Positions 535 through 59,582 of a DNA stretch of 64,000 nt are shown in pieces. How positions within the stretch are numbered: position 1 is the stretch's first letter; each line of letters begins with the position of its first letter. The stretch is from an uncultured Candidatus Binatia bacterium (GTDB lineage: Bacteria > Desulfobacterota > Binatia > Binatales > Binataceae), in assembly GCA_964429575.1 (NCBI GenBank), contig CAYSCX010000012.1:2195-66194 (forward strand). The letters run 5' to 3'. A program made the position numbers and the translations under genes. The notes under the pieces are model-generated. The model was given only the letters and a program-made list of their open reading frames with translations. It did not search any database and had not been told where the DNA came from.

Positions 535-654
535 TTATGCACCGGCGAGCGTCGGGATTGTCGGGGCCGTTCGTGCACAGTGTCAAGCGCGCTGGATCGT
601 CGCACCGGAGCGGCTGCGTTGCCTGCGCGGTATCTTTGCGATTAGCTCATCACG

Positions 655-9597: not shown

Positions 9598-9619
9598 GCC
9601 TCCCGAGCTTACGGGAGGC
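9598..9619 (-). terminator. stem-loop (8-bp GC-rich stem, 6-nt loop) downstream of the TcmP gene; weak intrinsic terminator candidate
   Basis: gcctcccg-agctta-cgggaggc. No clear U-tract follows on the minus strand. Confidence 0.3.
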
Positions 9620-9670
9620 CGCGCTTCGGCGCGTCGTCATGAGGCTTACCGTATGGCGCATCCACGCTTG

Positions 9671-10813
9671 CTAGCGTCGCCACACAAGGAAGTTCCCTTT
9701 TCCACGCTGTGGCACTCGTTGTCTCTCCTGCAGTCCGCCAAGTTCAAGATTCCCCGCATCCGCCCACTCGCGAATCCATTTCTTGAGGTCGCGGTCCCAG
9801 ACAAGTTGATTGGTGAGCGCTAGAGACCACACTTCGTCGTATTCGACGCGGCCATGGCGCTGCAAAAGCTCTTGGACCGATCTTCGAGCGAAGCCGGTAT
9901 AACGTTGGCGCAGCGACTCATAGAAATGGGGGTCGTGGAGTTGGGAGGCTGCAAATAGCTCCGCTTGTTGCTGGCGGCTAATTCGCTTTCGCTGCCCTGC
10001 CTTTGCGCGCTGCGTCTCCATAACCTTCATCGCGCGCTCTTCCGCCTGCTTGAATACTTCGACGCCTTTCGGACTACGCGTGCAGTACAACAGATGAAAG
10101 GAGGTGCGGTTGACGTCAGGACGAAGGATTCGTGCAGCACATACCTGACTAAAGTGTCCAACCTGCTTGACCATGTCGCTGTACGATTGCAGAGCTGCGT
10201 CCTCTCGGTCATTTCCAGACAGAGAACCGAGGTTGATTCGAGATGTCGGTGAACCAAGTAAAGAAGGGAAACTCTGCTCCACAAAGCGCACGATCGAATT
10301 CGTCATGAAGCTGATCAGCACCTCGGACGGATCAATTCTCAGAAGCGGATCGATTGCCGTCAGGGGGAAACCACTCCAGCCCTTCGGATCAATAAAGATG
10401 AACGGAAAGTTGCCCGGTCCGCCTTTCCTAATGAAGTCGAGGATATCGGCGATTTCGCCCGTAAGCTCGCCGTTTACTGTTCGTATGTCGACATCAGCTA
10501 TCGAACTGGCGAATCTATGCAATTTCTGGAACGCAGCGAGATCCATTTCAAGAAAATAACACCGCAGCTTCAGTGCCCGTCCGTGAGATTTGAGCGACTC
10601 TCTAGCCAACCGTAGTTCGTTGATAGCAATTTGGAATGAGCTGTCGGCCAAGTTCTCTGAGCGCACATTCCACGGACCAGAGAAACAATCGACATATGTG
10701 ATTGCGGTGTAGCGAAACCCGATGATGTGCGCAAAACGACGCAGGCACTGACTGAGAATGAAGTGTTTTACCTCCGTCTGTTCGCGACCCTCGTACAGTG
10801 ATATGTCGTCCAA
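9671..10813 (-). CDS. three-Cys-motif partner protein (TcmP-like), function unknown
   Basis: 380-aa protein immediately downstream of, and co-oriented with, a DUF5131/Gp37-Gp68 three-Cys-motif gene. This is the pairing that defines the TcmP family. It contains DCFSGPW and FIDPKGW motifs reminiscent of Rossmann/methyltransferase-like folds. The region has markedly lower GC than its flanks. Confidence 0.65.
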   Translation of the reverse strand: MDDISLYEGREQTEVKHFILSQCLRRFAHIIGFRYTAITYVDCFSGPWNVRSENLADSSFQIAINELRLARESLKSHGRALKLRCYFLEMDLAAFQKLHRFASSIADVDIRTVNGELTGEIADILDFIRKGGPGNFPFIFIDPKGWSGFPLTAIDPLLRIDPSEVLISFMTNSIVRFVEQSFPSLLGSPTSRINLGSLSGNDREDAALQSYSDMVKQVGHFSQVCAARILRPDVNRTSFHLLYCTRSPKGVEVFKQAEERAMKVMETQRAKAGQRKRISRQQQAELFAASQLHDPHFYESLRQRYTGFARRSVQELLQRHGRVEYDEVWSLALTNQLVWDRDLKKWIREWADAGNLELGGLQERQRVPQRGKGNFLVWRR

Positions 10814-10849
10814 GATCCCACCCTTTGAGACGCTCTCAATTACATCGAT

Positions 10850-11620
10850 CTACGCGGACGGCGACGTGCGATCATTGGATTGCTGGCTGATGGCGGATGG
10901 CGAAGGGAATTCGCTGTAGATTCGGCCTTTCAGTTTCCGACCGGTCTCATGCTTCCGCGGGCCGCCCCATTGCTTGAAGAAAAATGGCACTCCGAACTCT
11001 CTACATTGACGGAAGATTGATATTACCCAATCTTGGTTCATTGGTCTTGCGCCAGGGCCGCTTTCTCCGCCAACGATCACCCAATCGATTGCAGTCAGAT
11101 CAAGCTTTCCAAGATCCTCTAACAAAGGTTCGATCGACAGGAATCTCACACGGGCCGGAGTTCGACGCAGCGCCTCAATTCTGCGTAGACCATACGATTT
11201 ATCTTCCACACTTACTCCGAACCAAACATGAGGCAGCATGGCGAGCCAATTGAGCGGGCCAGTTAGAAGTTCGTTCATCCGTTCGTGGCGCTTCGTCAGG
11301 ATTTGGTAGATATGCCAGTCGGCCTCCGCGATGACTTTTCCCACTCGGACGATGTAGTCTGTTGGAACACCCTCCTGAAAGAGATCGCTCATCGAATTTA
11401 CGAAGATCCGCCGACTCGCTTTCCAGCGCAGTGGTTCGGTTAGCTTTCCGGGAACAAGCCTTAAATCGAATCCGCTCTCGTAGGGGTGGCCCCGCACGCC
11501 CCGAAATCTCTCTGCGAAACGCTCGGCGTAGCAAAACTTACAACCCGGGCTGATCTTTACGCATCCCCGCACTGGGTTCCATGTTGCGTCCGTCCATTCG
11601 ATGGTCGAAGCAATGCTCAT
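10850..11620 (-). CDS. three-Cys-motif protein, phage Gp37/Gp68 family (DUF5131)
   Basis: STIEWTDATWNPVRGCVKISPGCKFCYAE, FVNSMSDLF, ILTKR, WFGVSVED, VRFLSIEPLL, IDWVIVGGESGPGARPM and FFFKQWGG are the hallmark motifs of PF07505. Lower GC. Confidence 0.8.
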   Translation of the reverse strand: MSIASTIEWTDATWNPVRGCVKISPGCKFCYAERFAERFRGVRGHPYESGFDLRLVPGKLTEPLRWKASRRIFVNSMSDLFQEGVPTDYIVRVGKVIAEADWHIYQILTKRHERMNELLTGPLNWLAMLPHVWFGVSVEDKSYGLRRIEALRRTPARVRFLSIEPLLEDLGKLDLTAIDWVIVGGESGPGARPMNQDWVISIFRQCREFGVPFFFKQWGGPRKHETGRKLKGRIYSEFPSPSAISQQSNDRTSPSA

Positions 11621-11698
11621 GTTCTTTTCCCCTCTCGGATCCTAGGCGAAGAAAGAGCGAATCTCAATGGTCCATCCATTTTGGCCTGCGCGCCAGCA

Positions 11699-13312
11699 TC
11701 AACCAGCGCCGTTTGCGGAGAGGATTTGCTCCACCACCGCCTCGAGCGGCTTTGGCCGGCGCGGCCAGCGCCAGCCGATCACCAAACCAATCGCAGTCAG
11801 CGCGAAACAGATCTCTGAAAAAAGATCACCGACCATCGTGTAGAGCGTGCGTGAGTTGCGCCACGACACGTCCTCGATCTGGGTGCCGCGCTTGAAGAGC
11901 GGAGTTGCGGCGGTAATCTCGCCAGTCGGTAGAATGATGGCGCTGATGCCCGTCTGCGCGTCGCGAATCATCGGCACCTTGTTTTCCGCCGAGCGCAGCG
12001 CCGCCATCGCGAGCGCCTGATAGGGCGCGGAACTCTCCCCGTACCACGCGTCGTTGGTGATGTTCACCAGCACGTTGGCGCCTGCTTTGACGGCTCGGCG
12101 GGTGAGATCGGGAAAGACGCTCTCATAGCAGATTAGAACGCCGAGCTTTGCGCCATGGACGTCGAAGACCGTCTGCCGCGTACCCGGAATCAAATCGCCG
12201 AATCCCTCGACCACGCGATTCACGAACATCCCTAGCAGCTTGCGCGCCGGTACGTATTCGCCAAATGGCACCAGTTGCATCTTGTCGTACCAGCCATTGA
12301 TCTCGCCGTCTGCCGAAACGACGTAAGCGCGATTGTAGAATCCCACCCGGCCGTCCTCGGCGCCCATCGCGGGAGCACCGAACAGAATCGGTTCGCCCGA
12401 TTGACGCGCGAGTCCAAGCAGCGCGGCGCGGTAGGAGGAGTAGTCCGCCATCTCCGCGGAATAGTGATCGTCCGGCTGGAACAGGAACGCCGCGGCAGCC
12501 TCGGGCCACACCACCAACTGCGCGCCCCGCCGTGCCGCGGCCGCAGTCTCTTCCTGATACACGCGGAAGCTCGACGCAAGGTGAGCTGGATCCCACTTGA
12601 TCGATTGCGCAATGTTGCCCTGGACCATCGCGACCTTCATGCTGCCCTCGACCGGTGCGGTTGCGAGTTGACGCTGACGCAGAGTCCCGAAGGCGAACAC
12701 AACGATCATGAGTGCGGTGAGAGCACCGAGGCTGGTCACTTGAAGGCGTCGCGTGCCGCGTCGGAACACAACCGTGTAGATCACTGCGTTGAAGAGCAGA
12801 ATGAGCGCGGAGACGCCGTAGACGCCGGTGAATTCGGAAAGTTGAATTACCTCAAGGTTGCGGTACGCCGTATAGCCGACCAGGTTCCACGGAAATCCGA
12901 TCGGGAAGAAGCTGCGCAGCCATTCGAACGCCGTCCACCCAAGCGGCATCGTGACGACCATCGGAATTCTGAGCCGGCGCGCGATGAACTCGCCGGACCA
13001 GATCGCGCCCATCGTGTTGATCGCCATCACCGCCGAAAGCAGGAGCATCGGCAGGATCGCAAATTCCACGCGGACGCCGGCGAAGTCGGTTAGAGGAATC
13101 ACGATCCAGTACATCGAGCCGACGTAACAGGCGAGGCCCTGGAGGTATGCGTAGCGCGCGACGCGTCCCAACGGTTCGCCTTCGATCGCGTAGAAGAGCG
13201 GAACGAACGCCGCCCATGCGAACAGGCTCAAGTCGAACTTCGGATACGCGAGGGCAAGCGCGAGGCCGCTCGCGACGACGAGGAGAGTGCGAGTGAGGGT
13301 GTTCTGCGACAT
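11699..13312 (-). CDS. lnt: apolipoprotein N-acyltransferase
   Basis: Multi-TM N-terminus plus a CN-hydrolase domain (AQLVVWPEAA, catalytic context). 537 aa from the internal ATG whose codon overlaps the upstream gene stop. The Arg-rich 52-aa extension in the ORF track was judged to be read-through of the upstream gene region. Confidence 0.8.
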   Translation of the reverse strand: MSQNTLTRTLLVVASGLALALAYPKFDLSLFAWAAFVPLFYAIEGEPLGRVARYAYLQGLACYVGSMYWIVIPLTDFAGVRVEFAILPMLLLSAVMAINTMGAIWSGEFIARRLRIPMVVTMPLGWTAFEWLRSFFPIGFPWNLVGYTAYRNLEVIQLSEFTGVYGVSALILLFNAVIYTVVFRRGTRRLQVTSLGALTALMIVVFAFGTLRQRQLATAPVEGSMKVAMVQGNIAQSIKWDPAHLASSFRVYQEETAAAARRGAQLVVWPEAAAAFLFQPDDHYSAEMADYSSYRAALLGLARQSGEPILFGAPAMGAEDGRVGFYNRAYVVSADGEINGWYDKMQLVPFGEYVPARKLLGMFVNRVVEGFGDLIPGTRQTVFDVHGAKLGVLICYESVFPDLTRRAVKAGANVLVNITNDAWYGESSAPYQALAMAALRSAENKVPMIRDAQTGISAIILPTGEITAATPLFKRGTQIEDVSWRNSRTLYTMVGDLFSEICFALTAIGLVIGWRWPRRPKPLEAVVEQILSANGAG

Positions 13313-23288: not shown

Positions 23289-23735
23289 TCAACGAGAGGC
23301 GCGGCCCCACGATTCGATAAGATTTTCGAAGGCGCGGCGGAGCTTTGGATCTTTCAGTTCGGGAAGTTCGACCGCGTAACGGGCGCGCCGCGGCACCGGT
23401 CGCAGTTTGGGCCGCTCGCGTCGGGAGAGGCGTCCTTGCACGAAACGCAGCTCGCGCACGCAGTCGTCGGCGAGTGCATCGCGTAGCCGGCGTAGAATTT
23501 CCGGTCTCATCAGATTCAGTTCTTGTATCCACATCGCACCCGACACTTTCACCACCGCGGTGTGGAACTTGAGCGAGACGATCTCGGTGCGACGCGCGAT
23601 CGTTTCGCCGACCACGTCGGGCCACGCGCGAATTACGCGGACGATCGCGAAGTGGCCTTCGGTGTCGAGGTGTTGAAGGAGCGGCGAGATGACGGATGCG
23701 ATCGGCTGAAGTTCGTTGCGGCGATGCGAGCTCAT
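23289..23735 (-). CDS. DUF721 (DciA-like) domain protein
   Basis: 148 aa. The WPDVVGETIARRTEIVSLKFHTAVVKVSGAMWIQEL pattern is typical of DUF721. Confidence 0.55.
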   Translation of the reverse strand: MSSHRRNELQPIASVISPLLQHLDTEGHFAIVRVIRAWPDVVGETIARRTEIVSLKFHTAVVKVSGAMWIQELNLMRPEILRRLRDALADDCVRELRFVQGRLSRRERPKLRPVPRRARYAVELPELKDPKLRRAFENLIESWGRASR

Positions 23736-23750
23736 ACGGCGCAGTACCTT

Positions 23751-23928
23751 AGCAGGGTGTTGAGAAAAGCATGGAACGCCAACTTGGCATCGGCTTTGTT
23801 CTCAATGCCCTGCGTGAAAACCTTGTCCTGAGCAACGGGCGAAGGATCAGGCCGCCATCCTTATCTTCTCCCCCGAAGACGCGAGAGAGGGAGCAGGCTG
23901 TTGAAAATGCCTTTTTCAACAGCCTGCT
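23751..23928 (+). repeat. MITE-like structured repeat, copy A (about 178 bp)
   Basis: Left end agcagggtgttgagaaaagc. Right end ttttcaacagcctgct is its inverted complement. There are internal hairpins, including agcaggctgttgaaaa-tgcc-ttttcaacagcctgct. It is highly similar to 59374..59556 and more diverged from 54111..54264. Confidence 0.7.
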
Positions 23929-24084
23929 GGCTGGTTCGTACGCGCGGACAAATCGCTCGCGCGACGGCTTCGGGAGTGCATTCGCACCGATGAATCCGCT
24001 GATTCAGCGCTATAAGCAGAGCTAAACCAGAAACGACGCTTTGACGCCCTTCCTATTAGGCGAAGTTTTACCAAAATATTATCA

Positions 24085-24175
24085 ACACCCCTATGAATAG
24101 GTTGTTGACACTGCCCTGTATACAACCTGTTGTAGGTCGACGCTTGACAGCACGCACCGAGTGAGAGCATATTTG
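24085..24175 (+). promoter_or_regulatory. AT-rich candidate operator/promoter upstream of nrdJ
   Basis: Two palindromes: CCTATgaATAGG and TGTATACA. A possible promoter is TTGACA-N18-CATATT at about 24144..24173. NrdR-box-like, but not a consensus match. Confidence 0.3.
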
Positions 24176-24286
24176 CCCGCACCATGGCGTGTCTCGCAGT
24201 GATCAGCGCGCCCTAAGAAGGGGGCGCTGACCGATGGGACACGCCACGGTAACGCGACAGCAACCGGGCGGCGGGGAGGAAGGCGG

Positions 24287-27109
24287 ATGGCGGGGGAAGC
24301 CACGACGGGGCTGGAAATGAAGCCTTCTAAGACCGTAGAGCGCACGCAGGCGGGTGGCGGGCGTATCGATTCGGAGGCCGCGCGCAGCCGCGGCTTCGCA
24401 GTCGAGCGGTACTTCACGACGCCGGGCATCGATCCCTATTCCGAGGTCGAGTGGGAGATTCGCTCCGCGGTCATCGCGGGCGAGGACGGACGCGTCGTAT
24501 TTGAACAGCGCGACGTCGAGGTACCGCGCTTTTGGTCGCAGACCGCGACCAACGTGGTGGTCTCGAAATACTTCCGCGGACCGCTCGGCACACCGCGCCG
24601 CGAGACCAGCGTGCGCCAGCTCATCGCGCGCGTGGTGGACACGATCACCGCGTGGGGCGAGCAGCAGGGCTACTTCGCGGTCGGCTCCGAGGAGCGCAGC
24701 ACATTTCACGACGAGTTGACGCATCTGCTGCTCACGCAGAAGGCGGCGTTCAACAGTCCAGTATATTTCAACGTAGGAATCGATCCGAAGCCGCAGTGCT
24801 CCGCCTGTTTCATCCTCAAGGTCGAGGACAACATGGAGTCGATCCTCGGCTGGTACCGCAACGAAGGAATGATTTTCAAGGGCGGTTCCGGCTCGGGCGT
24901 GAATCTCTCGGCGCTCAGATCGTCGCGCGAGAAACTCTCCGCGGGCGGGACCGCGTCGGGACCGCTTTCGTTCATGAAGGCCGCGGACGCATCAGCGGGC
25001 GTGATCAAGTCGGGCGGCAAGACGCGGCGCGCCGCGAAGATGGTCGTGCTCAACGCCGATCACCCGGACATCGTCGATTTCATCAAGTGCAAGCAGGAGG
25101 AAGAGAAGAAGGCGTGGGTGCTGATCGACGCGGGCTACGACGCATCGCTCGACGGGCCGGCGTACGGCTCCGTGTTTTTTCAGAACGCGAACAACTCCGT
25201 GCGCGCGTCCGACGAGTACATGCAGGCGGTGGTGAACGACGGGAAGTGGCAGACGCGATTCGTCCGCAGCGGCGAAGTTGACGCCGAGTACCGCGCGCGC
25301 GACCTGATGCGAATGATCGCCGAGGCGGCGCATGCGTGCGGCGACCCGGGGATGCAGTTCGACACGACGATCAACCTTTGGCACACCTGTCCGGCGTCGG
25401 GGCGCATCAACGCGTCGAATCCGTGCAGCGAGTACATGCATCTGGACAACTCGGCGTGCAATCTCGCGTCGCTAAACTTGCTCCGGTTCCTCGACGATCG
25501 CGGCGAGTTCGATGTGAAGGCGTTTCGCCACGCGGTGGACGTGATGATCACCGCGCAGGACATCGTGATCGATAATTCGTCGTACCCGACCGACGAGATT
25601 ACGAAGAACGCGAAGGCGTTTCGTCAACTCGGGCTCGGCTATGCGAACCTGGGCGCGCTGCTGATGGCGCTCGGGATGCCGTACGACTCCGAGCAGGGGC
25701 GCGACTACGCAGCGGCGATCACTGCATTGATGACCGGCGAGGCGTACCTGCAGTCGGCGCGAGTCGCCGCGCAGATGGGACCGTTCGAGGGCTATCCGCC
25801 GAACCGCGAGCCGATGCTCAAAGTGATCGAGCGGCATCGGAGCTACGCCTACAAGCTCGAACCGGCGCACGTTCCGCTCGAGCTGTTGCGCGCGTCGCGC
25901 GAGGCGTGGGACGACGCGCTGAAAGTCGGACAGCAGTCGGGCTACCGCAATTCGCAGGCGACGGTCATCGCGCCCACCGGCACGATCGCGTTCATGATGG
26001 ACTGCGACACCACCGGCATCGAGCCCGACATCGCGCTCGTCAAATACAAGAAGCTGGTCGGCGGCGGGATGCTGAAGATCGTCAACCAAACGATCCCGCG
26101 CGCGCTTAAGCGGATTGGCTACGATTCGAAAGAGATCCAGGAAATCGTCGAATACCTCGACGAGCACGAGACCATCGAGGGCGCTCCGCACCTGGCGCAG
26201 GCGCATCTCGCGGTGTTCGACTGCGCGTTCAAGCCGCGCGCCGGCTCGAGGACGATTCAATACAACGGGCACCTCAAGATGATGGGCGCGGTGCAGCCGT
26301 TCATCTCGGGCGCGATCTCCAAGACCATCAACATGCCCACCGACGTGACCGTGGATGAAGTCGCCGAGGCGTACCTGACGGCGTGGAAGCTCGGGCTGAA
26401 GGCGGTCGCCATTTATCGCGACGGCTCCAAGCGCACGCAGCCGCTCACCACCGCAAAGAGTGAGAAGGCAGCGCCGTCGGCTCTGGAAGCGGCCAGAGCG
26501 GTCGTCCCCAGCGGCGAGTTCAGGCCGCCGCGGCGCAAGCTCGCCGACGAACGCAAGTCGATCACGCACAAGTTCGATATCGCGGGGCACGAGGGATACA
26601 TCACGGTCGGAAAGTACGAGGACGGCACGCCAGGTGAGATCTTCGTCTCGATGTCGAAGCAGGGCTCGACGATTTCGGGGCTGATGGATTCGTTCGCGAC
26701 CGCGATTTCGTACGCGTTGCAGTACGGCGTGCCGCTGCAATTTTTGGTGGACAAGTTCGCGCACATGCGTTTCGAGCCGTCGGGCTTCACCAAGAATCCG
26801 CAGATTCCGTACGCCAAGTCGATCGTCGATTACCTGTTTCGCTGGCTCGCCTCGAAGTTCCTCGACGAGGAGGCGAAGCGCGAGGTCGGCGTGCAGATGG
26901 AAACGGAGCGCGGCGAGAAGCGCGCGGACACGCCGGCCTTGTCGCTTGCGCCAGTGCCGACGCTCAGCGAGGGCAAGGACAGCGCAATGCGCCAGACATT
27001 TATCAACCAGGCCGATGCGCCGCCGTGTCCCGATTGCGGAAGCATCATGGTGCGCACCGGCTCCTGCTACAAGTGCTTGAACTGCGGAACGACGAGCGGA
27101 TGTTCGTAA
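24287..27109 (+). CDS. nrdJ: class II (adenosylcobalamin-dependent) ribonucleotide reductase
   Basis: 940 aa. KPQCSACFILKVEDNMESI active-site region, PCSEYMHLDNSACNLASLNL, and a C-terminal CPDCG...CYKCLNCG zinc ribbon. GGAGGAAGG Shine-Dalgarno before the ATG. Confidence 0.9.
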   Translation: MAGEATTGLEMKPSKTVERTQAGGGRIDSEAARSRGFAVERYFTTPGIDPYSEVEWEIRSAVIAGEDGRVVFEQRDVEVPRFWSQTATNVVVSKYFRGPLGTPRRETSVRQLIARVVDTITAWGEQQGYFAVGSEERSTFHDELTHLLLTQKAAFNSPVYFNVGIDPKPQCSACFILKVEDNMESILGWYRNEGMIFKGGSGSGVNLSALRSSREKLSAGGTASGPLSFMKAADASAGVIKSGGKTRRAAKMVVLNADHPDIVDFIKCKQEEEKKAWVLIDAGYDASLDGPAYGSVFFQNANNSVRASDEYMQAVVNDGKWQTRFVRSGEVDAEYRARDLMRMIAEAAHACGDPGMQFDTTINLWHTCPASGRINASNPCSEYMHLDNSACNLASLNLLRFLDDRGEFDVKAFRHAVDVMITAQDIVIDNSSYPTDEITKNAKAFRQLGLGYANLGALLMALGMPYDSEQGRDYAAAITALMTGEAYLQSARVAAQMGPFEGYPPNREPMLKVIERHRSYAYKLEPAHVPLELLRASREAWDDALKVGQQSGYRNSQATVIAPTGTIAFMMDCDTTGIEPDIALVKYKKLVGGGMLKIVNQTIPRALKRIGYDSKEIQEIVEYLDEHETIEGAPHLAQAHLAVFDCAFKPRAGSRTIQYNGHLKMMGAVQPFISGAISKTINMPTDVTVDEVAEAYLTAWKLGLKAVAIYRDGSKRTQPLTTAKSEKAAPSALEAARAVVPSGEFRPPRRKLADERKSITHKFDIAGHEGYITVGKYEDGTPGEIFVSMSKQGSTISGLMDSFATAISYALQYGVPLQFLVDKFAHMRFEPSGFTKNPQIPYAKSIVDYLFRWLASKFLDEEAKREVGVQMETERGEKRADTPALSLAPVPTLSEGKDSAMRQTFINQADAPPCPDCGSIMVRTGSCYKCLNCGTTSGCS

Positions 27110-49191: not shown

Positions 49192-50415
49192 TTAGTTGTC
49201 GCTCTTCGAACCGCCGGTTGTGATGCCGCGGCCGAAGGCGGCGACCTGGTTTTGCCACTGCTCGCCGAAGGCGAGGATCAACACCTGCTGGTTGATGTGC
49301 GAGTCCTTGGAGAGGCTGCGCATCGCGCCGCCGCCTGCGTTCGCCATGACTTTGTAGGAAATGCGCGTCTGCTGATAGAACTGCGGCAGCTGCGAGATCT
49401 TGGGCGGCTCCTGGCGATGCACCTTGAGCCAGAACTCGCGCTCGAACCGCTCGTGCTCCTCCGCCGCCACGTCCACCGTGTTGAAGGTGCCGTTGTTGGC
49501 CTTGAACTGCTTGATTGAGGCGAGCAGTGGCGCGAAGTCATCCTTGGCCGGGGGCGCGTCGCCCACCAGCACAATGACCTTCTTCGCATAGGGCTTCCAG
49601 TCCATCTGCGACAGCGCTGCCTGCACCGCGCCCGCGGTGTCCTCTTCCCACTCACCGCCGCCCGCCGCCTGGATGCCGCTCAGAAACTGCTCGAGCTTCT
49701 TGCCCGACAACGTCAGCGGCTGAAGCTGCTGCTTCTCGCCCTTGCCGCCAAACACCACCACGCCCACGCGCGCGATGGGCACCAGGCGATGGATCGCGTT
49801 TACCAACTGCGCCATCTTGGCCTTGACGTCCTCGATGATGAGCTTCATCGAGCCGGTGCCATCGATGACCAGCACCACGTCGAGACCCTTGCGCCGCAAT
49901 TCGCCGATGAACCCGCCGAAGCCCGAACCCACCCCGCGGCCGTAGCCGGAGCCGATGCCGCCGCCACGCCCGATGCCGATGCCGCCGCCGCCGGCGGCGC
50001 GCACGTAGTCGTTGGCGAGACCGACCGCCTGCGAGGTGTCGACCGCGGTGGGCTGGTCGAACGCCTCCGGCGACGTGTCAGGCATCGGAACTTCCGGAAT
50101 GTCGAGGTCCGCCAGTTCGCCGCCGCCCCCACCGCCGCCCGCCTCCAGGTTCACCATGATCAGTTCGCGTCCACGCTGGACGTGGGTGCTGATGATGAGG
50201 AAGAGCAGGACGATAACGTGAATTGCGATGGAGAGAGGAAACGGTCCGGCGAAGAACCGCAGATAGTCTCTTAAGGTTTCAAATCGCTCAACGTCGGCTT
50301 CGTCTTCGTCGCGATGAAGTTCGGCCTCGAGCTCCTTCTTCGAGGTCCATCGATAGAGAATGATGGCGACGACGGTTGTCGAGATGATCAGCCCGATTAC
50401 GATTGCAACAATCAT
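49192..50415 (-). CDS. membrane-anchored Gly-rich von Willebrand factor A domain protein
   Basis: N-terminal TM, a poly-Gly/GIG region, then VWA with a MIDAS-like motif (VVLVIDGTGSM). It is last in the exbB-exbD-exbD operon on the same strand. Confidence 0.7.
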   Translation of the reverse strand: MIVAIVIGLIISTTVVAIILYRWTSKKELEAELHRDEDEADVERFETLRDYLRFFAGPFPLSIAIHVIVLLFLIISTHVQRGRELIMVNLEAGGGGGGGELADLDIPEVPMPDTSPEAFDQPTAVDTSQAVGLANDYVRAAGGGGIGIGRGGGIGSGYGRGVGSGFGGFIGELRRKGLDVVLVIDGTGSMKLIIEDVKAKMAQLVNAIHRLVPIARVGVVVFGGKGEKQQLQPLTLSGKKLEQFLSGIQAAGGGEWEEDTAGAVQAALSQMDWKPYAKKVIVLVGDAPPAKDDFAPLLASIKQFKANNGTFNTVDVAAEEHERFEREFWLKVHRQEPPKISQLPQFYQQTRISYKVMANAGGGAMRSLSKDSHINQQVLILAFGEQWQNQVAAFGRGITTGGSKSDN

Positions 50416-50532
50416 CTTTTACTTTGCTCCTCGCCAGGGTGTCCAATCACCTTATCCCTGTTCGAGGCCCCACCAAATTAGCTCGGGGCACGCCTCTCCA
50501 TTAAAGATAGACGAAACTCTCCGCCAGAAATT

Positions 50533-50970
50533 CTAACTTCCGCCAGGCGCCGCGCCGCCCGGCGGCGCCGCAGATACCGCGATCGCGATCGCCTCAGCAC
50601 CCGCGCTTTTTGCGATGTCGAGAATATGGACCATGTCGCCCAGAATGACCTTCGGGTCACCCTGAAAGATCACGATTTTGTCAGGGGATTTCTCGAGCAC
50701 TTCGTGCAGCGCCGGCTGGAGTTCAGCGAGCGACACGTTGCGCTCATTGACGAATATCTGATGCTCGGCTGTGTAGGTGACGATGATGCCCTTGGGCTGG
50801 TCCTGGGGAGTAGTGGCTTCCGCCTTCGGGAGATCAACGTGAGCCGCGGATTCAATGGTCGCGGCGGTGGTCACCATGAAAATGATCAGCAGAACCAGAA
50901 AAACGTCGGTCAGCGGGGTGATGTTGATGTCGGCGAACACCCCGCCGCCTTTGCTAGCCTGCATGGCCAT
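50533..50970 (-). CDS. exbD: ExbD/TolR biopolymer transport protein
   Basis: INITPLTDVFLVLLIIFMV TM, about 145 aa. Confidence 0.8.
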   Translation of the reverse strand: MAMQASKGGGVFADINITPLTDVFLVLLIIFMVTTAATIESAAHVDLPKAEATTPQDQPKGIIVTYTAEHQIFVNERNVSLAELQPALHEVLEKSPDKIVIFQGDPKVILGDMVHILDIAKSAGAEAIAIAVSAAPPGGAAPGGS

Positions 50971-51016
50971 GGGTCAATTCCCTTTGCGCGGTCAAGGCCG
51001 GCGGCAGCGCCCCGCG

Positions 51017-51457
51017 CTAGCCGCCCGGTCCCCCGGCGGTCGTCTGGGCGCCGGTAGCGCGTTTGGCCGCGATCGCGATCTGACCCGCGCCAGCAGCCTT
51101 GAAGATGTTCATGATTCTCACCATGTCGCCAAGCAGCACCTTTCGGTCGCCCTGAAACACAACGATCTTGGCGTCCAGCTTGTCGAGCGCTTCGCGCAGG
51201 ACCGGCAGCAGCTCGCGCTCGGGAACGTCACGTGAGTTGACGAACAGCTCGTGATTGGCCGTGTAGGTAACGATGACGCCCTTGTTCTCGGGCGATGTGT
51301 TATTTGCGGTCGGCACGTCCACGCGGGCGGCCGACTCGACCGTGACCGAAGTCGTCACCATGAAGATGATCAGGAGTACCAGGAAGACGTCGGTCAGCGG
51401 CGTGATGTTGATTTCCGAAAATACGCCGCCTGCTTCCTTGGGGCCGCTAACGGCCAT
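51017..51457 (-). CDS. exbD: ExbD/TolR biopolymer transport protein (second copy)
   Basis: INITPLTDVFLVLLIIFMV TM, 146 aa. A paralogue of the downstream copy. Confidence 0.8.
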   Translation of the reverse strand: MAVSGPKEAGGVFSEINITPLTDVFLVLLIIFMVTTSVTVESAARVDVPTANNTSPENKGVIVTYTANHELFVNSRDVPERELLPVLREALDKLDAKIVVFQGDRKVLLGDMVRIMNIFKAAGAGQIAIAAKRATGAQTTAGGPGG

Positions 51458-52088
51458 GCGACTCCCTCCCGTGCAGGGCGGCGTCGATCAGGCGATCGGC
51501 GTTGATGTGCATCACGGCGTTGATGTTTTCAACTTTAGTCGCAAAGTAGTTGTAAAAGATAACCGCCAGAATGGCGACGGCGAGCCCGAGCGCGGTTGCG
51601 ATCAGCGCTTCGGAGATACCTGCCGCGACGACCGAGAAACCACCCGTACCCATGATGGCCATCGACTGGAAGGCGACCAGGATGCCGACCACGGTGCCGA
51701 ACAGTCCGATGAATGGAGCCGACGCGCCGACGGTGGCGAGGATCCACAGATAACGCTTGAGTTCGAGCATCTCCACGAACCGGCGCTCTTCGTCGAGCTC
51801 GACGAGCTGGTCGCGGGTGAGGCTCTGGGCGCCTGCGATCAATGCGTGATAGACGCGCTCTTCGGGAGTGGCCCGCGCCTGAGTCGCCTGCAGCGCCTCG
51901 TTCATCTTCCCAGCGCGCAACTGCGCGATGAGTGAGTCCGCGGTCTTGGCCGCGCGCGAGGTGATCCCGCGCAGCGCCCAAATCCGTTCGAAAATGATCG
52001 CGAGGCACATCACCGACATAAAGAGCAGCGGGTACGTCGCGTAGTACCCCTGCGAGATCATCGCCATAATCCCGAACTGAGTCTGCAT
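51447..52088 (-). CDS. exbB: MotA/TolQ/ExbB proton channel protein
   Basis: 3-TM profile with a conserved C-terminal region. 213 aa. Overlaps exbD by 11 nt. Confidence 0.85.
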   Translation of the reverse strand: MQTQFGIMAMISQGYYATYPLLFMSVMCLAIIFERIWALRGITSRAAKTADSLIAQLRAGKMNEALQATQARATPEERVYHALIAGAQSLTRDQLVELDEERRFVEMLELKRYLWILATVGASAPFIGLFGTVVGILVAFQSMAIMGTGGFSVVAAGISEALIATALGLAVAILAVIFYNYFATKVENINAVMHINADRLIDAALHGRESHGR

Positions 52089-52599
52089 CGCCTATCCTCT
52101 CAAGCTAAGATTTGAATCGAGCGGCGGTTGAGGTCCCGCTCCAACCTTTACTACTGGCCCCCAAAGAACCCCAAACGCTTCGCTTTGATACCGGCCACGC
52201 GCTCCGTTTGCGGACTTGGGCTGGCGGCATGCCGCAGTGCCCAATGCGCAAGAAACAGCGCGGTTGCTTCCAATGCTACAATCGAGTGGTTTTTGTCAAG
52301 AGGGACTGGCGTGGCGGATGGAAAAACCGCAATCGCGCGGCCGCCGCACTCACTGCAGGCGCCCTCTGGCGCTCACCCACGCCAGTGGAATCGTTTCAGA
52401 TGGACGCGGTTAGGGCAAGCGCGACGGATCGAGTCGCGCGCAAGTCGGTGAAAAATCACACATCGGACGCCATCGCGCGGCGGCAACTCGCCTTGACTTC
52501 TATCGGAGGCGCGTTTAAGCAGAGTTTGACCGCGATGCGGTCGTTGTTTTTGTCGTCCTAATGCTCAATCAAAAGAGTTTGACGCCGCGCGCGCGGGCC

Positions 52600-53172
52600 A
52601 TGTCCACCAGCCTCACATTCATTGCGGCTGCTGCGGCGCTGGCGGTGTTGATCGCGGTCGCAGCAGGCGCGTGCGAGCGCGCCGAAGAGAAAACTTATTT
52701 GCCCGCGCCGCAACCGGAGCAGAAGGTCAAGAACCCGCTTGAGCCGACCAAAGATCTGCCGCCGGATTTCATGAAGTCGTTGCCGATTTATCCGGGTGCT
52801 GAGATCGAGCAGGTGCGCAAACCGAAGGGCGCGATGCGGGAAATAATGTTCGTCAGCGACGCATCGCTCGACGAGTTGGTCAATTTCTATAAGACGCAAC
52901 TCAAGGAGCGCGGCTTTCACATCACGTCGGCGCTGATAATGGCAGCGCGGCGCACCTGGTCATGCGATTTTCACAAGGAGGGGATGCAGGCGACGGTGCT
53001 GCTATACCCGCACGACCTCGACAAGTCGCGCATGACCATCGACCTGGTGTACGAGATGCCCAGGAAGATTGATCCGGAACTAATGGAGCCAGTAGAAAAC
53101 TTCGACGTAGTCGGACCGGGCGAGTACGTACAAAAGACGACAACCCAGCAGGAGAAGGCGAAGAGGGATTAA
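52600..53172 (+). CDS. putative lipoprotein (hypothetical)
   Basis: Signal peptide MSTSLTFIAAAAALAVLIAVAAGAC with a lipobox Cys. Start at an internal Met. Confidence 0.45.
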   Translation: MSTSLTFIAAAAALAVLIAVAAGACERAEEKTYLPAPQPEQKVKNPLEPTKDLPPDFMKSLPIYPGAEIEQVRKPKGAMREIMFVSDASLDELVNFYKTQLKERGFHITSALIMAARRTWSCDFHKEGMQATVLLYPHDLDKSRMTIDLVYEMPRKIDPELMEPVENFDVVGPGEYVQKTTTQQEKAKRD

Positions 53173-53176
53173 CATC

Positions 53177-54112
53177 ATGGGAATTCTCGACGGCAAAGTT
53201 GCAGCAATCACCGGCGCGGGACGCGGCATCGGACGCGAAGAGGCGCTGCTCATGGCGCGCGAGGGCGCGAAAATCGTGGTCAACGACCTCGGCGGCCACT
53301 TCGACGGAACCGGCCAGTCGCGTTCGCCCGCCGAAGACGTTGTGAAGGAAATTCGCTCCGCGGGCGGAGAGGCGGTTGCGAATTTCGAGAGCGTGACCGA
53401 CTTCAAATCCGCCAAGCGGATCATCGAGTGCGCGCTCGACAACTTCGGCAAGCTCAATATCATAGTGAACAATGCGGGCATCCTGCGCGACCGCATGGTC
53501 TTCAACATGAACGAGGAAGACTGGGATGCGGTGGTCGGCGTGCACCTCAAGGGCAGCTTCAACGTGGCACGCCACGCGTGCGCCTACTGGCGCGAGCAGC
53601 ACAAGGGCGGCAACGTGCTCAACGGACGCCTCATCAACACCAGCTCCGATTCGGGATTGCTCGGCAACGCCGGCCAGAGCAACTACGGCGCGGCCAAGGC
53701 GGCGGTCGCCGCGATGGCGGTCATCATCGATCGCGAGATGGTGCGCTATGGTGTAACCGCAAACGCGATCGCGCCGGTCGCGCGGACACGGCTGACGGTC
53801 GATGCGACCCCGCAGACCGCGGCGGGAATGCCGCAAGCGAAGGAAGGGCAGTGGGATCCATTTAGTCCCGCCCACGTCGCGCCGTTGGTCGCCTGGCTCG
53901 GCAGCGACGACGCCAAAGATGTGCATGGCGAGGTGTTCCGCGTCGGCACGGGAAACGTGTGGCTGATGAAGGGCTGGCACTCGGTGGCGAAAGTGACCAA
54001 GACCGGGTCGATGTGGGCGCCGGCGGAGCTTGGCGCCAAGCTGAAGGAAGAGTTGGCCAAGGGCGCGACCGCCAAGGAAAGCATGGGTCAAATCATGGCG
54101 CAGGGCCGATAG
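53177..54112 (+). CDS. SDR-family oxidoreductase (MFE-2 dehydrogenase-like)
   Basis: ITGAGRGIGRE, NNAG, YGAAKAA. 311 aa. Its TAG stop is formed at the junction with repeat copy B. Confidence 0.8.
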   Translation: MGILDGKVAAITGAGRGIGREEALLMAREGAKIVVNDLGGHFDGTGQSRSPAEDVVKEIRSAGGEAVANFESVTDFKSAKRIIECALDNFGKLNIIVNNAGILRDRMVFNMNEEDWDAVVGVHLKGSFNVARHACAYWREQHKGGNVLNGRLINTSSDSGLLGNAGQSNYGAAKAAVAAMAVIIDREMVRYGVTANAIAPVARTRLTVDATPQTAAGMPQAKEGQWDPFSPAHVAPLVAWLGSDDAKDVHGEVFRVGTGNVWLMKGWHSVAKVTKTGSMWAPAELGAKLKEELAKGATAKESMGQIMAQGR

Positions 54113-54264
54113 CAGGGTGTTGAGGAGCCCAAGAGATCCAAGATTGCTCGAAGCAGTACGCTCAACGCCCTGCGTGAGAGATGGCTTCCTTCATAATCTT
54201 CTCCCCTTGGGGGAGATGTGAGAGAGGGCGCACCCTGTTGAAAGCGACGTTTTCAACAGCGTGG
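54111..54264 (+). repeat. MITE-like structured repeat, copy B (diverged, about 154 bp)
   Basis: Starts agcagggtgttgag..., has an internal ctcaacgccctgcgtga arm and a tctcccc-ttgg-gggaga hairpin, and ends ccctgttgaaagcgacgttttcaacagcgtgg. Confidence 0.55.
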
Positions 54265-54271
54265 TAGGCGG

Positions 54272-54796
54272 GTGAGCGGAAAGAAAAAAGCGGAAAGCGC
54301 GGCCTCCAAAGGGCCGCGCTTTCGTTCAGTGCTGATGATATGCGCGGCAAATACCGCGCGCAGCGTTATGGCTGAACATATACTGCGCCGCGAACTAAAG
54401 GTGCGCGGCGGTGACGGGCACGTGCGAGTCGTGTCGGCGGGCATCGCGCCGTACGCGCGCGACGGCGCGCTGGTCTCGCTCGATACGCGCCTCGTGCTTC
54501 GCACCGAAGGCATCCATCTCGACGAAGAATCCACATCGACCGATTTGAAGCGCCATCCGGAATTACTCGCAGCGGCAGACTTGGTGCTCGCGATGACGCG
54601 CCAGCAGGCCATCGAGCTTCATGCGAAGTTCTCGGTGCCGGCCGAGAGCGCAGTATTCACGTTCAAGGAATTCGCGGGACACGCCGGCGACATCGACGAT
54701 CCCTATGAGAAGGGTGACGCGGTCTTTCACGCTTGTCTCGATGAGATCATGCGGTTGGTGCCGCGGATCGCGGACCGCATCCTGGGCGACGATTGA
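54272..54796 (+). CDS. low-molecular-weight protein tyrosine phosphatase / arsenate reductase family
   Basis: CX5R P-loop VLMICAANTARSVMAE, and a DP motif (IDDPYEKGD). The N-terminal 20 aa may not be translated; an alternative start lies near 54329. Confidence 0.65.
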   Translation: MSGKKKAESAASKGPRFRSVLMICAANTARSVMAEHILRRELKVRGGDGHVRVVSAGIAPYARDGALVSLDTRLVLRTEGIHLDEESTSTDLKRHPELLAAADLVLAMTRQQAIELHAKFSVPAESAVFTFKEFAGHAGDIDDPYEKGDAVFHACLDEIMRLVPRIADRILGDD

Positions 54797-54812
54797 AGCG
54801 GGAGATCGACGC

Positions 54813-55241
54813 GTGTGGTTTGAGAATCCTCCCGATTCAGTCATCCGCGAGATTTTGTCGCATCCGGCGACGGTCGCGGTGGTTGGATGCTCCGACAGGG
54901 ACGCGCGCGACAGCCTGCGCATCGCCAGGCTACTCAAGTCGCGCGGCTTTCGAGTGATCCCGGTCAACCCGACACTCGTCCCCGACGCGCTCGCTAGTGT
55001 GCTGAGCGAGCGGTGTTACCCGGATGTCGCGTCGATTCCAGACCCGGTCGAAATAGTCGATGTGTTCCGGCGGCCGGAGTATCTGCCGGAAGTCGTCGCG
55101 GACGCGATCCGCAAGGGCGCGCGCATCCTGTGGTGCCAGCTCGGGGTTGTGAATCTCGACGCGGCGCGCGAGGCTCAGCGTGCCGGTATGACCGTGATCA
55201 TGGATCGCTGCCCCGCGATCGAATACGCGCGCCTTTTCTGA
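54813..55241 (+). CDS. CoA-binding domain protein (PF13380-like)
   Basis: ATVAVVGCSDRDARDS...VIPVNP...EIVDVFRRPEYLPEVV Rossmann-like CoA-binding pattern. GTG start with GGGAG upstream. Confidence 0.6.
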   Translation: MWFENPPDSVIREILSHPATVAVVGCSDRDARDSLRIARLLKSRGFRVIPVNPTLVPDALASVLSERCYPDVASIPDPVEIVDVFRRPEYLPEVVADAIRKGARILWCQLGVVNLDAAREAQRAGMTVIMDRCPAIEYARLF

Positions 55242-55261
55242 GTGCGCGGCGGCCCGCCGTC

Positions 55262-55813
55262 ATGAAAATTCGGAAATGGACCACGGTTGGTAGCGATCCG
55301 GTCTATCGGACGCCGATTTTCGATCTTCACCGCCGCCGCGCGAACCATCCTGTGCGCGGTGAGCGTGACTTCTTCATCCTCGAGGCGCCCGCGTGGGTGA
55401 ACATCATACCGGTGACGCCCAAGCGCGAGGTGGTGTTGGTGCGCCAGTTTCGCCACGGCGTCAGTGCGTTCACGCTCGAGATTCCGGGAGGGATGATCGA
55501 TCCAAGCGACGAGAACCCGCTGGTCGCGGCGCGGCGCGAGATGGTCGAGGAGTGCGGCTACGACTCAGGCGACGTGGTCGAACTGGGGCGCGTACATCCC
55601 AATCCGGCCATACAACCGAACTTCTGCTACACGTTTTTCGCGCGCAACGTGCGCAAGGTGCGCCGCGCGTCGCACACCGATACGGAAGAGACGCAAGTCA
55701 CGTTGGTACCGCTTGCGAAGGTGAAGCAGCTAATCGCATCAGGAAAGATTACGCACGCGCTGGTGATCGCGGCGTTTTCGTTTCTGCATCTTTACAACCC
55801 GCCGCGCCGGTGA
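55262..55813 (+). CDS. NUDIX hydrolase
   Basis: Nudix box GGMIDPSDENPLVAARREMVEECG. Confidence 0.8.
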   Translation: MKIRKWTTVGSDPVYRTPIFDLHRRRANHPVRGERDFFILEAPAWVNIIPVTPKREVVLVRQFRHGVSAFTLEIPGGMIDPSDENPLVAARREMVEECGYDSGDVVELGRVHPNPAIQPNFCYTFFARNVRKVRRASHTDTEETQVTLVPLAKVKQLIASGKITHALVIAAFSFLHLYNPPRR

Positions 55814-55861
55814 CGCCGCGCTTGCGCGACCGTCAAGGGTACGGCCGCCAAGGTGGCTTGG

Positions 55862-59193: not shown

Positions 59194-59373
59194 GCGTCCC
59201 GCTTACAGCGGGGCGAGCACGGCTCGGATTTCAACGCTGGGCAACTCGGCGAACGCGTCCATTCGAACGCGCGGTATGCGGCAAGGCGGGGGGATCGTCG
59301 CGTCGTGGTTGCACGGTCGCTTTGGCTCAAGCAAATCATATAATGGAGGTTCGGCGGATCGCGGCGGGCCACT

Positions 59374-59556
59374 AGCAGGGTGTTGAGAAAAGCCTTGAAT
59401 ACCAAATTGGCATCGGCCTTATTCCCAACACCCTGCGTCAAAACCTTGTCCAGAGCCATGGGCGACGGATCGGGCCGCCTTCGTATTGTTCTCCCCCTGA
59501 GGGGGAGACGCGAGCGAGGGAGCAGGCTGTTGAAAATGCCTGTTTCAACATCCTGC
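59374..59556 (+). repeat. MITE-like structured repeat, copy C (about 183 bp)
   Basis: Near-identical ends and internal hairpins to copy A, including tctccccc-tga-gggggaga and agcaggctgttgaaaatgcctgtttcaaca. It ends about 26 nt upstream of the TPR lipoprotein start. Confidence 0.7.
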
Positions 59557-59582
59557 CAAGCGTCGCGGATAGGTCGCCCCTT

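Follow-up and report, generated by a model that had tools for sequence, protein, structure and literature searches.

We analysed a 64-kb stretch of contig CAYSCX010000012.1 (assembly GCA_964429575.1) from an uncultured Candidatus Binatia bacterium, referred to below as the window. Three of its intergenic regions hold a short, hairpin-bearing repeat: copy A lies between dciA and nrdJ, copy B between an SDR gene and a gene for a low-molecular-weight protein tyrosine phosphatase (LMW-PTP), and copy C between genes for a PMT_2 glycosyltransferase and a TPR protein. A first-pass annotation, made from the letters alone, had described three copies in the same orientation. This was confirmed by an nhmmer search of the window with a three-copy profile, which returned three full-length matches on the plus strand (59374–59557, E 5e-60; 23751–23928, E 4e-59; 54111–54265, E 2e-43) with lengths of 155–184 nt. 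Apart from the copies' own self-complementary arms, no further copy was found in the window below E 0.1, and a repeat search agrees.

That annotation had considered two natures for the repeat. One was a non-autonomous transposable element, the other a set of structured cis-regulatory RNAs. Support for the first comes from dispersed copies, sharp YTAG boundaries, an empty site, the existence of subfamilies and flanking genes that are not duplicated, and we are highly confident that the element is mobile and non-autonomous. More specifically, the three sequences are probably copies of a new non-coding family of miniature inverted-repeat transposable elements (MITEs) of Binatia, non-autonomous like others of this kind: the element is small, ends in terminal inverted repeats, occurs as dispersed copies with unrelated flanks and, at copy A, is present in one genome and absent from a relative.

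All three copies lie within 36 kb and point the same way, as might be expected from a recent local segmental duplication, an explanation that the first-pass annotation itself had raised. However, alignment and repeat search both find the flanks of the three copies unrelated, the copies are 75–83% identical and so not recent, and more than 100 further copies are present on unrelated contigs. Chance similarity is at odds with nhmmer E-values of 1e-43 or lower, and we assign practically no weight to either explanation.

Anatomy of the element

The family consensus is ~156 nt long and comprises three hairpins, H1–H3. H1 (GCAGGGTGTTGAG-N37-CTCAACACCCTGC) and H3 (GCAGGCTGTTGAAA-loop-TTTCAACAGCCTGC) have a nearly identical stem (GCAGGSTGTTGAR), and their outer arms therefore form terminal inverted repeats of 13–16 nt, found in nearly all copies (5' GCAGGGTGTTGAG..., 3' ...TTCAACAGCCTGC). 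Each end also holds a second, inverted internal copy of the terminal repeat. H2 is unrelated to the ends and consists of an inner stem, TCTCYCCC-loop-GGGRGAGA, within a pyrimidine/purine outer stem. The 5' half of the consensus reads AGCAGGGTGTTGAGAAAC-(~33 nt)-TCTCAACACCCTGC GTGAAA.CTGGCTTC.TTCCT.A.CTTCTCYCCC-loop and the 3' half, after the H2 loop, GGGRGAGA..AGAG.GAGGG. GCAGGCTGTTGAAA-loop-TTTTCAACAGCCTGCT.

As first noted, the left and right ends of the window copies are inverted complements of each other (AGCAGGGTGTTGAG.. / ..TTCAACAGCCTGCT). Full-length identity between copies A and C is 83%. Copy B, which is more diverged, shares with them the stem of the 5' hairpin and ~75 nt at the 3' end and lacks a middle module of ~27 nt; this optional module is found in A, C and the copies on two metagenome contigs (L173 and L177), and is absent from B and most family members. 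All three copies form far more stable folds than their own shuffles do (z = -5.9, -4.2 and -5.5, respectively). The TCTCCCC/GGGGAGA hairpin had been reported as common to the copies; this stands for B and C, where it is intact, and fails for copy A, which has lost the 3' arm. Copy C carries mismatches in H1 and H3.

Family size, hosts and variants

A 22-base two-anchor pattern matched at least 120 metagenome contigs, and nhmmer recovered from the matched contigs 82 full-length copies, 73 of them unique, among the matches listed. Copy length ranges from 147 to 210 nt with a mode of 155–158 nt; this makes B the typical form, with A and C as a longer variant. A covariance model (CM) detected ~105 copies on the sense strand at 50–170 bits, compared to 25–45 bits on the antisense strand. 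The three-hairpin structure of this model was set by hand, as RNAalifold run on the raw MAFFT alignment missed H3 through mis-registered gaps.

Scanning a genome collection with the 14-mer AGCAGGGTGTTGAG gave at least 120 matches, nearly all due to chance, with one true full copy among the matches listed. A metagenome-assembled genome (MAG) of Candidatus Binataceae (L020) carries a full copy, the NrdJ of the window groups with Candidatus Binataceae / Binatus proteins, and the SDR protein of the window is encoded identically on a JGI contig (L241). The family is widespread in Binatia soil bacteria, with uneven density: ~75 kb around the window contains 3 copies, and 49 kb around nrdJ of three relatives contains none. 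An internal 19-mer matched two viral contigs, one bearing a full copy (L248) and the other a weak partial match (L247).

Subfamilies are distinguished by the interior of H1, the stem of H2 and the loop of H3, and a variant family has other arms (GCAGGGTGCGGAA/TTCCGCACCCTGC). Internal-deletion derivatives are also present; one of 31 nt on L194 consists of the two terminal arms only, lies between two CTAGs and abuts another copy. Most reading frames across the copies contain stops and some are open; a translated element frame gave one match, of 84 aa, in a collection of 5.8 billion proteins. Neither the sequence nor a description of the element was matched in Rfam, in plasmid records (BLAST) or in the full-text literature searched, and a full-text literature search for transposable elements of Binatia gave nothing relevant. 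The family is previously undescribed, and is an ordinary kind of genome parasite.

Some members are enlarged around H2 by extra insertions of ~50–130 nt, placed after the 5' part and before H3 (Table 1); these may be nested small elements. Two loci (L238 5111–5268 and L149 912–1069) have the left flank and the element in common and differ in the right flank, because either the copies have recombined or the assembly is chimeric at the repeat. Other GC-rich palindromes adjoin or lie inside degenerate copies at two further loci, which suggests that Binatia hold additional small repeat families.

An empty site at copy A

In L244, a relative with an NrdJ 97% identical to that of the window, the dciA–nrdJ spacer aligns on both sides of copy A and lacks copy A itself, and the element is therefore mobile. 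The empty site reads ACCTTAGCGGG (extended, ...ACCTTAGCGGGTTCG... / ...CGGCGCACTACCTTAGCGGGTTCGTGCG...) and carries a single TA(G). The filled site of the window reads ...ACCTTA[GCAGG...CCTGC]TGGCTGGTTCG... (extended, ...CGGCGCAGTACCTT[AGCAGG...CCTGCT]GGCTGGTTCGTACG...). The spacer of a second relative (L246, NrdJ 80% identical) is also empty at this position. On the simplest reading of these strings, copy A would have inserted at the TA of TTAG, the right TA having since mutated to TG; the strings fit equally well with models in which CT/AG is borne by the element. The presence/absence comparison covers one site, copy A: among the metagenome loci collected, joining the flanks of each copy yielded no empty site, and none was syntenic with the window. 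Copy B is kept in a strain 97.5% identical to the window (L241), with 3 differences.

Target sequence and stop codons

The copies sit in a narrow sequence context. T stands before AGCAGG in 67/73 copies and the position ahead of the left TA holds 38 C, 20 T, 10 A and 5 G, the left 'AG' of the junction being fixed by the search pattern; CCTGCT is followed by A in 52/73 and then by G in 60/73. At greater distance there is a weak excess of C on the left and of G on the right. With the two boundaries marked by hyphens, the junctions (C/T)TA-GCAGG...CCTGC-TAG form a palindromic CTAG-type context that most copies fit. TA is present at both ends in ~70% of copies, and CTAG at both sides in 21–23 copies. 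Homology between copies reaches no more than 1 nt beyond the foot of H1 on the left and no more than 1–3 nt beyond that of H3 on the right. The first-pass annotation had remarked that all three window copies are preceded by TAG, which target choice together with duplication would explain.

We propose that a transposase made elsewhere in the genome would bind the element ends and use (C/T)TAG sites as targets, inserting the element at the TA and duplicating this TA. Insertions into coding sequence would be selected against, and the surviving copies would be those in intergenic DNA. The target tetranucleotides are themselves 5–8-fold depleted: the window contains 28 CTAG sites against 215 expected (~8-fold) and 24 TTAG sites against 128 expected. 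Where insertion falls on a TAG stop codon, as in about one third of cases, the duplicated TA(G) would rebuild the stop. The strings that suggest TA duplication are also compatible with an element-borne CT/AG and no duplication.

Gene context was assessed with a crude GC3-based gene finder for 123 non-redundant copies. A stop-codon TAG overlaps the element terminus in ~39 of these (5' end, ~27; 3' end, ~12). Stop codons make up 21 of the ~100 non-coding TAG/CTA sites of the window, and given this baseline of ~20% the one third on stop codons is therefore only mildly above the expectation for any tolerated TAG. Copy B provides an example, as the TAG at its left end (54110–54112) is the stop codon of the 311-aa SDR gene (53177–54112). 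The earlier observation that copy B supplies the AG of this stop is correct, and would arise because of target choice combined with TA(G) duplication; the position of copy B on a stop codon is not special. Among the stop codons of 55 called genes in the window, TAG accounts for 21, TGA for 22 and TAA for 11, and TAG overall is ~2.7-fold under-represented.

Pairing within the stems

Base pairing was followed in a model-based alignment of 80 distinct copies, which is itself fitted to the structure: pairing is found in 92% of cells, compared to ~50% in slid controls. There are 12 double-change pairs versus 6.5 ± 1.5 in shuffles, and 0/500 shuffles reach the observed number. The inner pair of H2 is UA in 30 copies, CG in 28 and UG in 15; position 7 of H3 is UA in 48 copies, GC in 8, CG in 2 and unpaired in 18. 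At position 6, essentially every copy has G-C in H1 and C-G in H3, a fixed compensated difference. The number of independent stem changes is small, many being inherited by whole subfamilies. The covariation suggests that the hairpins matter, and pairing within each end seems to matter as well.

This signal is seen only across the whole family. The first-pass annotation had proposed that differences between copies A and C preserve pairing; on inspection, they are mostly wobbles or mismatches rather than compensations, and the proposal is weak for this pair. The consensus U.G pairs form on the given strand only. Departures of the G.U type outnumber those of the A.C type on this strand (~89 versus 30 cells, which are not independent events), in a count restricted to H2 and H3, the 5' arm of H1 being fixed by the search pattern.

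Gene neighbourhood and the regulatory RNA reading

Relative to the element, the upstream and downstream genes are oriented (+,+) in 30 cases, (-,-) in 16, (+,-) in 14 and (-,+) in 7, i.e. between co-directional genes the element is in sense 30 times and antisense 16 times, with 14 convergent and 7 divergent pairs. The H1 (5') end faces the 3' end of a gene in 67/96 copies and the H3 end in 39/88, an orientation bias that owes in part to the search pattern and to selection on stop codons. The neighbouring genes are diverse metabolic and housekeeping genes with no common function (1,865 ORFs, i.e. open reading frames, near copies, clustered all-against-all). No sigma-70-type promoter or intrinsic-terminator consensus was found inside the copies. 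Rfam gave no match for the window at the gathering threshold, and in E-value mode only sub-threshold hairpin look-alikes. Taken together, the mixed orientation, the unrelated neighbours, the lack of promoter and terminator and the lack of an Rfam match argue against a dedicated cis-regulatory RNA, the second nature proposed initially, and for a selfish element.

A structured RNA kept for a host function, be it a small RNA family, a cis-regulatory element or a 3' untranslated region (UTR) element, is nonetheless what several features would resemble. The folds are very stable (z -4 to -6), covariation exceeds that of shuffles, consensus U.G pairs are confined to one strand, sense copies are about twice as frequent as antisense copies between co-directional genes and the 5' end tends to face gene 3' ends; many copies start at a stop codon and so are probably transcribed as 3' UTR. 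Set against these are the absence of copy A beside a 97%-identical NrdJ, the frequency of both orientations, the loss of half of H2 in copy A and the mismatches in H1 and H3 of copy C, as well as the partly artefactual orientation bias and the negative results just described. Furthermore, the rate of change of copy B is close to the local one (3 differences over 155 nt, compared to 2.5% overall). We hence consider a primary host function highly improbable. A weaker version, which does not exclude mobility, is a MITE whose hairpins have been co-opted, e.g. as 3'-end mRNA stabilisers like REP/BIME or Correia sequences; the hairpins may affect the mRNAs that contain the element.

Other candidate identities were rejected: an integron attC site (the GTT/AAC motifs come in the opposite order), an intrinsic terminator (no T run), an outward-facing hybrid promoter (no -10 element at the right spacing) and a CsrA/RsmA-sponge RNA (too few GGA loops).

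The mobilising enzyme

We put at about even the chance that the element is moved by a DDE transposase of the TA-duplicating type. Within this type an enzyme of the IS630/Tc1-mariner kind would be the first choice, because TA within CTAG is a documented IS630 target: IS630 elements make a 2-bp duplication at CTAG, equal to the preferred (C/T)TAG context of the element (PMC2577343, Table 1; PMC2229807), and RUP offers the precedent of a bacterial MITE mobilised by IS630 and inserted at TA (PMC2229807). The terminal inverted repeats and the C-rich/G-rich flank preference, symmetric about TA, also speak for a DDE enzyme, as does an element orientation independent of local GC skew (45 versus 61 loci). 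An enzyme of the IS5/IS427 type is an alternative that would presumably fit the element ends similarly.

Several observations weigh against a DDE enzyme as the mobilising agent. Neither an autonomous element with matching ends (GCAGGSTGTTGA) nor any transposase was found in ~0.75 Mb of Binatia-type sequence, so the cognate transposase suggested as a check by the first-pass annotation did not emerge. Pairs of arms 0.5–4 kb apart were, across all loci, chance pairs or separate copies, and none encloses a transposase; ORFs between paired copies are housekeeping genes, the clustered ORFs near copies fall into metabolic families only, and no transposase is seen among compositionally atypical ORFs. 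Extending the sequence ~8.7 kb past the left end of the window and ~2.6 kb past its right end revealed no insertion sequence (IS) and no new copy. Pairing is maintained within each end, for which a DDE enzyme binding double-stranded DNA has no obvious need. Moreover, the symmetric DDE model predicts symmetry, whereas the ends are asymmetric: C precedes the left TA in 52% and the mirror G follows the right TA in 82%, while the left T is present in 92% and the right A in 71%. Finally, the last base is other than C in 7 copies and in 6/7 of these equals the base before the left TA; this match resembles a 3–4 bp duplication and is explained by neither the DDE nor the HUH model.

Some of these features would be accounted for by a REP/REPIN- or BIME-like element mobilised by a RAYT, an HUH Y1 tyrosine transposase. 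Each end would then be a REP-like hairpin with a terminal tetranucleotide CTAG, the end hairpins inverted and H2 acting as linker; the enzyme would recognise folded single-stranded hairpins and cut next to CT, and CTAG would belong to the element or the cleavage site with no target duplication. REP ends carry a conserved tetranucleotide, GTAG in E. coli REP and in SMAG, and the enzymology assumed here is that reportedly described for RAYTs. In line with this, each end is formed by a hairpin of the same stem with NTAG immediately adjoining, stem changes are compensated within each end and across the variant family, and G.U-type departures prevail in H2 and H3. The asymmetry of the junctions (right CT 90/89% versus left C 52%) fits an element-borne CT with a looser target, and the copies are intergenic with the H1 end towards gene 3' ends. 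However, no Y1_Tnp gene was seen in the Pfam-annotated fetched loci or the tested ORFs, and solo hairpin units, common for REPs, are nearly absent (one in ~0.75 Mb). The element is a fixed unit of ~156 nt in which the third hairpin is always present, and the symmetric flank preference centred on TA is typical of transposases acting on double-stranded DNA. A RAYT-like enzyme is in our judgement unlikely, and is the main rival to a DDE transposase.

A non-autonomous element of the IS200/IS605 type (PATE) would have its subterminal top-strand hairpins bound by the Y1 transposase TnpA, and would insert 3' of YTAG without duplication. Some features do agree with this: the two end hairpins share one sequence on a single strand, NTAG lies at the left flank throughout and CTAG closes the element, and the filled/empty comparison is as compatible with this mode as with TA duplication. 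Both IS608 and ISDra2 have guide sequences beside their hairpins, with spacing to the cleavage site; here the boundaries are the hairpin feet, which leaves no room for either. IS200/IS605 insertions reportedly follow the lagging-strand template, whereas the element shows no orientation bias with respect to the GC skew of the flanks (up to 3 kb each side, a noisy proxy): 45 loci are positive and 61 negative, or 18 versus 24 among strongly skewed loci (|z| >= 2). No TnpA or TnpB gene was seen and Rfam gave no omega-RNA/HEARO-type match. An IS200/IS605-type mechanism is accordingly unlikely, and a PATE has in our view only a very small probability.

More broadly, a module recognised through its hairpins, by an HUH/RAYT-like or other structure-dependent enzyme, might be aimed at CTAG/TAG, land preferentially on TAG stops and rebuild them. 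We regard this as a minority possibility, left open because of the compensated stems, the one-strand U.G pairs, the ~2:1 sense bias and the asymmetry of the ends. If true, a three-hairpin cassette would lie in the 3' UTRs of many Binatia genes, possibly co-opted for protection or termination at mRNA 3' ends.

Features of the window

The coordinates of the three copies and their parts are collected in Table 1.

Table 1. Positions of the element copies, their hairpins and neighbours in the window, and of unusual members elsewhere
Feature	Position	Strand	Remarks
Copy A (GCAGGGTG...CAGCCTGC)	23752..23927	+	176 nt; CM 90.6 bits; middle-module subfamily
Copy A flanks	23750-23751 (left); 23928-23929 (right)		TA left; degenerate TG right
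Copy A neighbours	dciA 23289-23735; nrdJ 24287-27109	dciA minus	copy A upstream of nrdJ promoter-like site 24144-24173
Copy A H1	23752..23813	+	13-14 bp outer stem GCAGGGTGTTGAG / CTCAATGCCCTGC, 37-nt interior
Copy A middle module (CCTTGTCCTGAGCAACGGGCGAAGGATCAGG)	23821..23851	+	optional, ~27-30 nt
Copy A H3	23893..23927	+	GCAGGCTGTTGAAAA-TGCCT-TTTTCAACAGCCTGC; 3' arm = right terminal inverted repeat
Copy B	54112..54264	+	153 nt, typical short form; CM 111.6 bits
Copy B flanks	54110-54111 (left); 54265-54266 (right)		TA at both sides
Copy B hairpins	H1 54112-54173; H2 ~54183-54229; H3 54230-54264
Copy C	59375..59556	+	182 nt; CM 82.4 bits; same subfamily as A
Copy C flanks	59372-59375 (left); 59557-59558 (right)		CTAG left (TA 59373-59374); degenerate CA right
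Copy C hairpins	H1 59375-59436; H2 ~59478-59520; H3 59522-59556
Copy C neighbours	57274-59193; 59583-61391		PMT_2 glycosyltransferase gene; TPR gene
Members with extra insertion	L134 3111-3347; L186 2181-2409; L125 7417-7676; L121/L146; L225/L234
Other palindromes	L235 ~2330-2460; L153 ~590-620		CCTCTCC-TTATCCTA-GGAGAGG; CCCTCCCC-TTGGACAA-GGGGAGGG; CCCTCTCCCTGTCCAGGGAGAGGG

The gene downstream of copy B probably requires a revised start. The LMW-PTP gene had been placed ~8 nt from the element, and the two gene callers used differ on its start (54272 versus 54368). Because the CX5R active-site motif is read from ~54341, the start is probably GTG 54329 or ATG 54335 instead of 54272; the Pfam LMWPc domain begins at residue 20 of the 54272 ORF. 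Copy B is therefore ~65 nt upstream of the gene, not 8. The DNA between the two contains, at 54293–54323, a GC-rich hairpin of 12 bp (GAAAGCGCGGCC...GGCCGCGCTTTC), which is accompanied by a T run on the minus strand.

The nrdJ leader (24060–24180) holds conserved blocks, TTTACCAAAA..TTATCAACACCCCTATGAATAGGTTGTTGACA and ACAACCTGTTGTAGGTCG..GCTTGACAG, which are kept even at 80% NrdJ identity, and the promoter-like site there reads TTGACA-18-CATATT. The palindromes look like NrdR-box-type operators by sequence; Rfam found no cobalamin riboswitch at the leader.

The strain contig L241 is 97.5% identical to the window over 5.6 kb (50177–55821), the match ending at ~5645 of L241. Beyond ~55821 the window has a PMT_2 gene (55862–57442, minus strand) and L241 a different gene of 312 aa, and the break is a strain-level rearrangement or indel boundary. 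A direct repeat of 155 nt (50797–50951 and 51281–51435, 71% identity) corresponds to two tandem ExbD paralogues. At 9600–11700 there is a low-GC island (52–56% versus ~63%) with, both on the minus strand, a DUF5131 gene (10850–11620, E 8e-96) and an ORF of 380 aa that has no Pfam match (9671–10813); 6/28 CTAG sites of the window cluster at 9.2–12.3 kb. The island was probably acquired horizontally or derived from a phage.

Discussion

The element appears to work like MITEs of the RUP/Correia type, with an architecture that resembles REP/BIME units. It shares with RUP of Streptococcus pneumoniae, which is mobilised by IS630-Spn1, a length of ~100–180 bp, a non-coding nature, an intergenic location, terminal inverted repeats and, probably, insertion at TA. 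Unlike RUP/IS630, each of its ends is palindromic (terminal repeat plus inverted internal copy) with covarying stems, the end statistics are not fully symmetric and an IS630-family partner with matching ends was not found. Correia elements (CREE/NEMIS) of Neisseria are likewise MITEs of 100–160 bp, duplicate TA as the element may do, lie next to genes in hundreds of intergenic copies, occur in a long and a short form set apart by an internal module and give transcripts that fold into hairpins (in part PMC2229807). They have 26-bp inverted repeats with promoter elements, an IHF site and RNase III processing, features not found here, and the sequences are unrelated.

With REP/BIME/REPIN sequences and SMAG of Stenotrophomonas the element has in common GC-rich hairpins, an outer NTAG, two inverted hairpins per unit, an intergenic position often just after genes and compensated stem changes. 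It departs from REPs as a fixed three-hairpin module with next to no solo hairpins, and in having a palindromic tetranucleotide, CTAG, which acts as a target or a duplication would; RAYT genes were not seen. IS200/IS605 PATEs also have similar hairpins at both ends on one strand and insert beside a specific tetranucleotide, whereas the hairpins of the element are terminal rather than subterminal, with no replication-strand bias and no TnpA/TnpB gene seen.

Binatia (Binatota) are abundant uncultured bacteria of soils and sediments. To our knowledge, they are represented only by MAGs, and a repeat family of this sort has practical consequences. It breaks assemblies, a Logan contig (L249) starting inside copy C, and it creates spurious ORF calls and misplaced start codons beside real genes. 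At the same time, it is a lineage marker and provides presence/absence characters for population genomics. Two aspects are of interest in themselves. One is that the ends are doubly palindromic and their stems covary, the other that copies often land on TAG stops and do no harm there: a strict target (TA in CTAG), the strong avoidance of CTAG and the frequency of TAG stops would together funnel insertions onto stop codons and leave the genes intact. Should the enzyme recognise the hairpins, or should mRNA 3' ends make use of them, the element would offer a new model beside REP/BIME and Correia.

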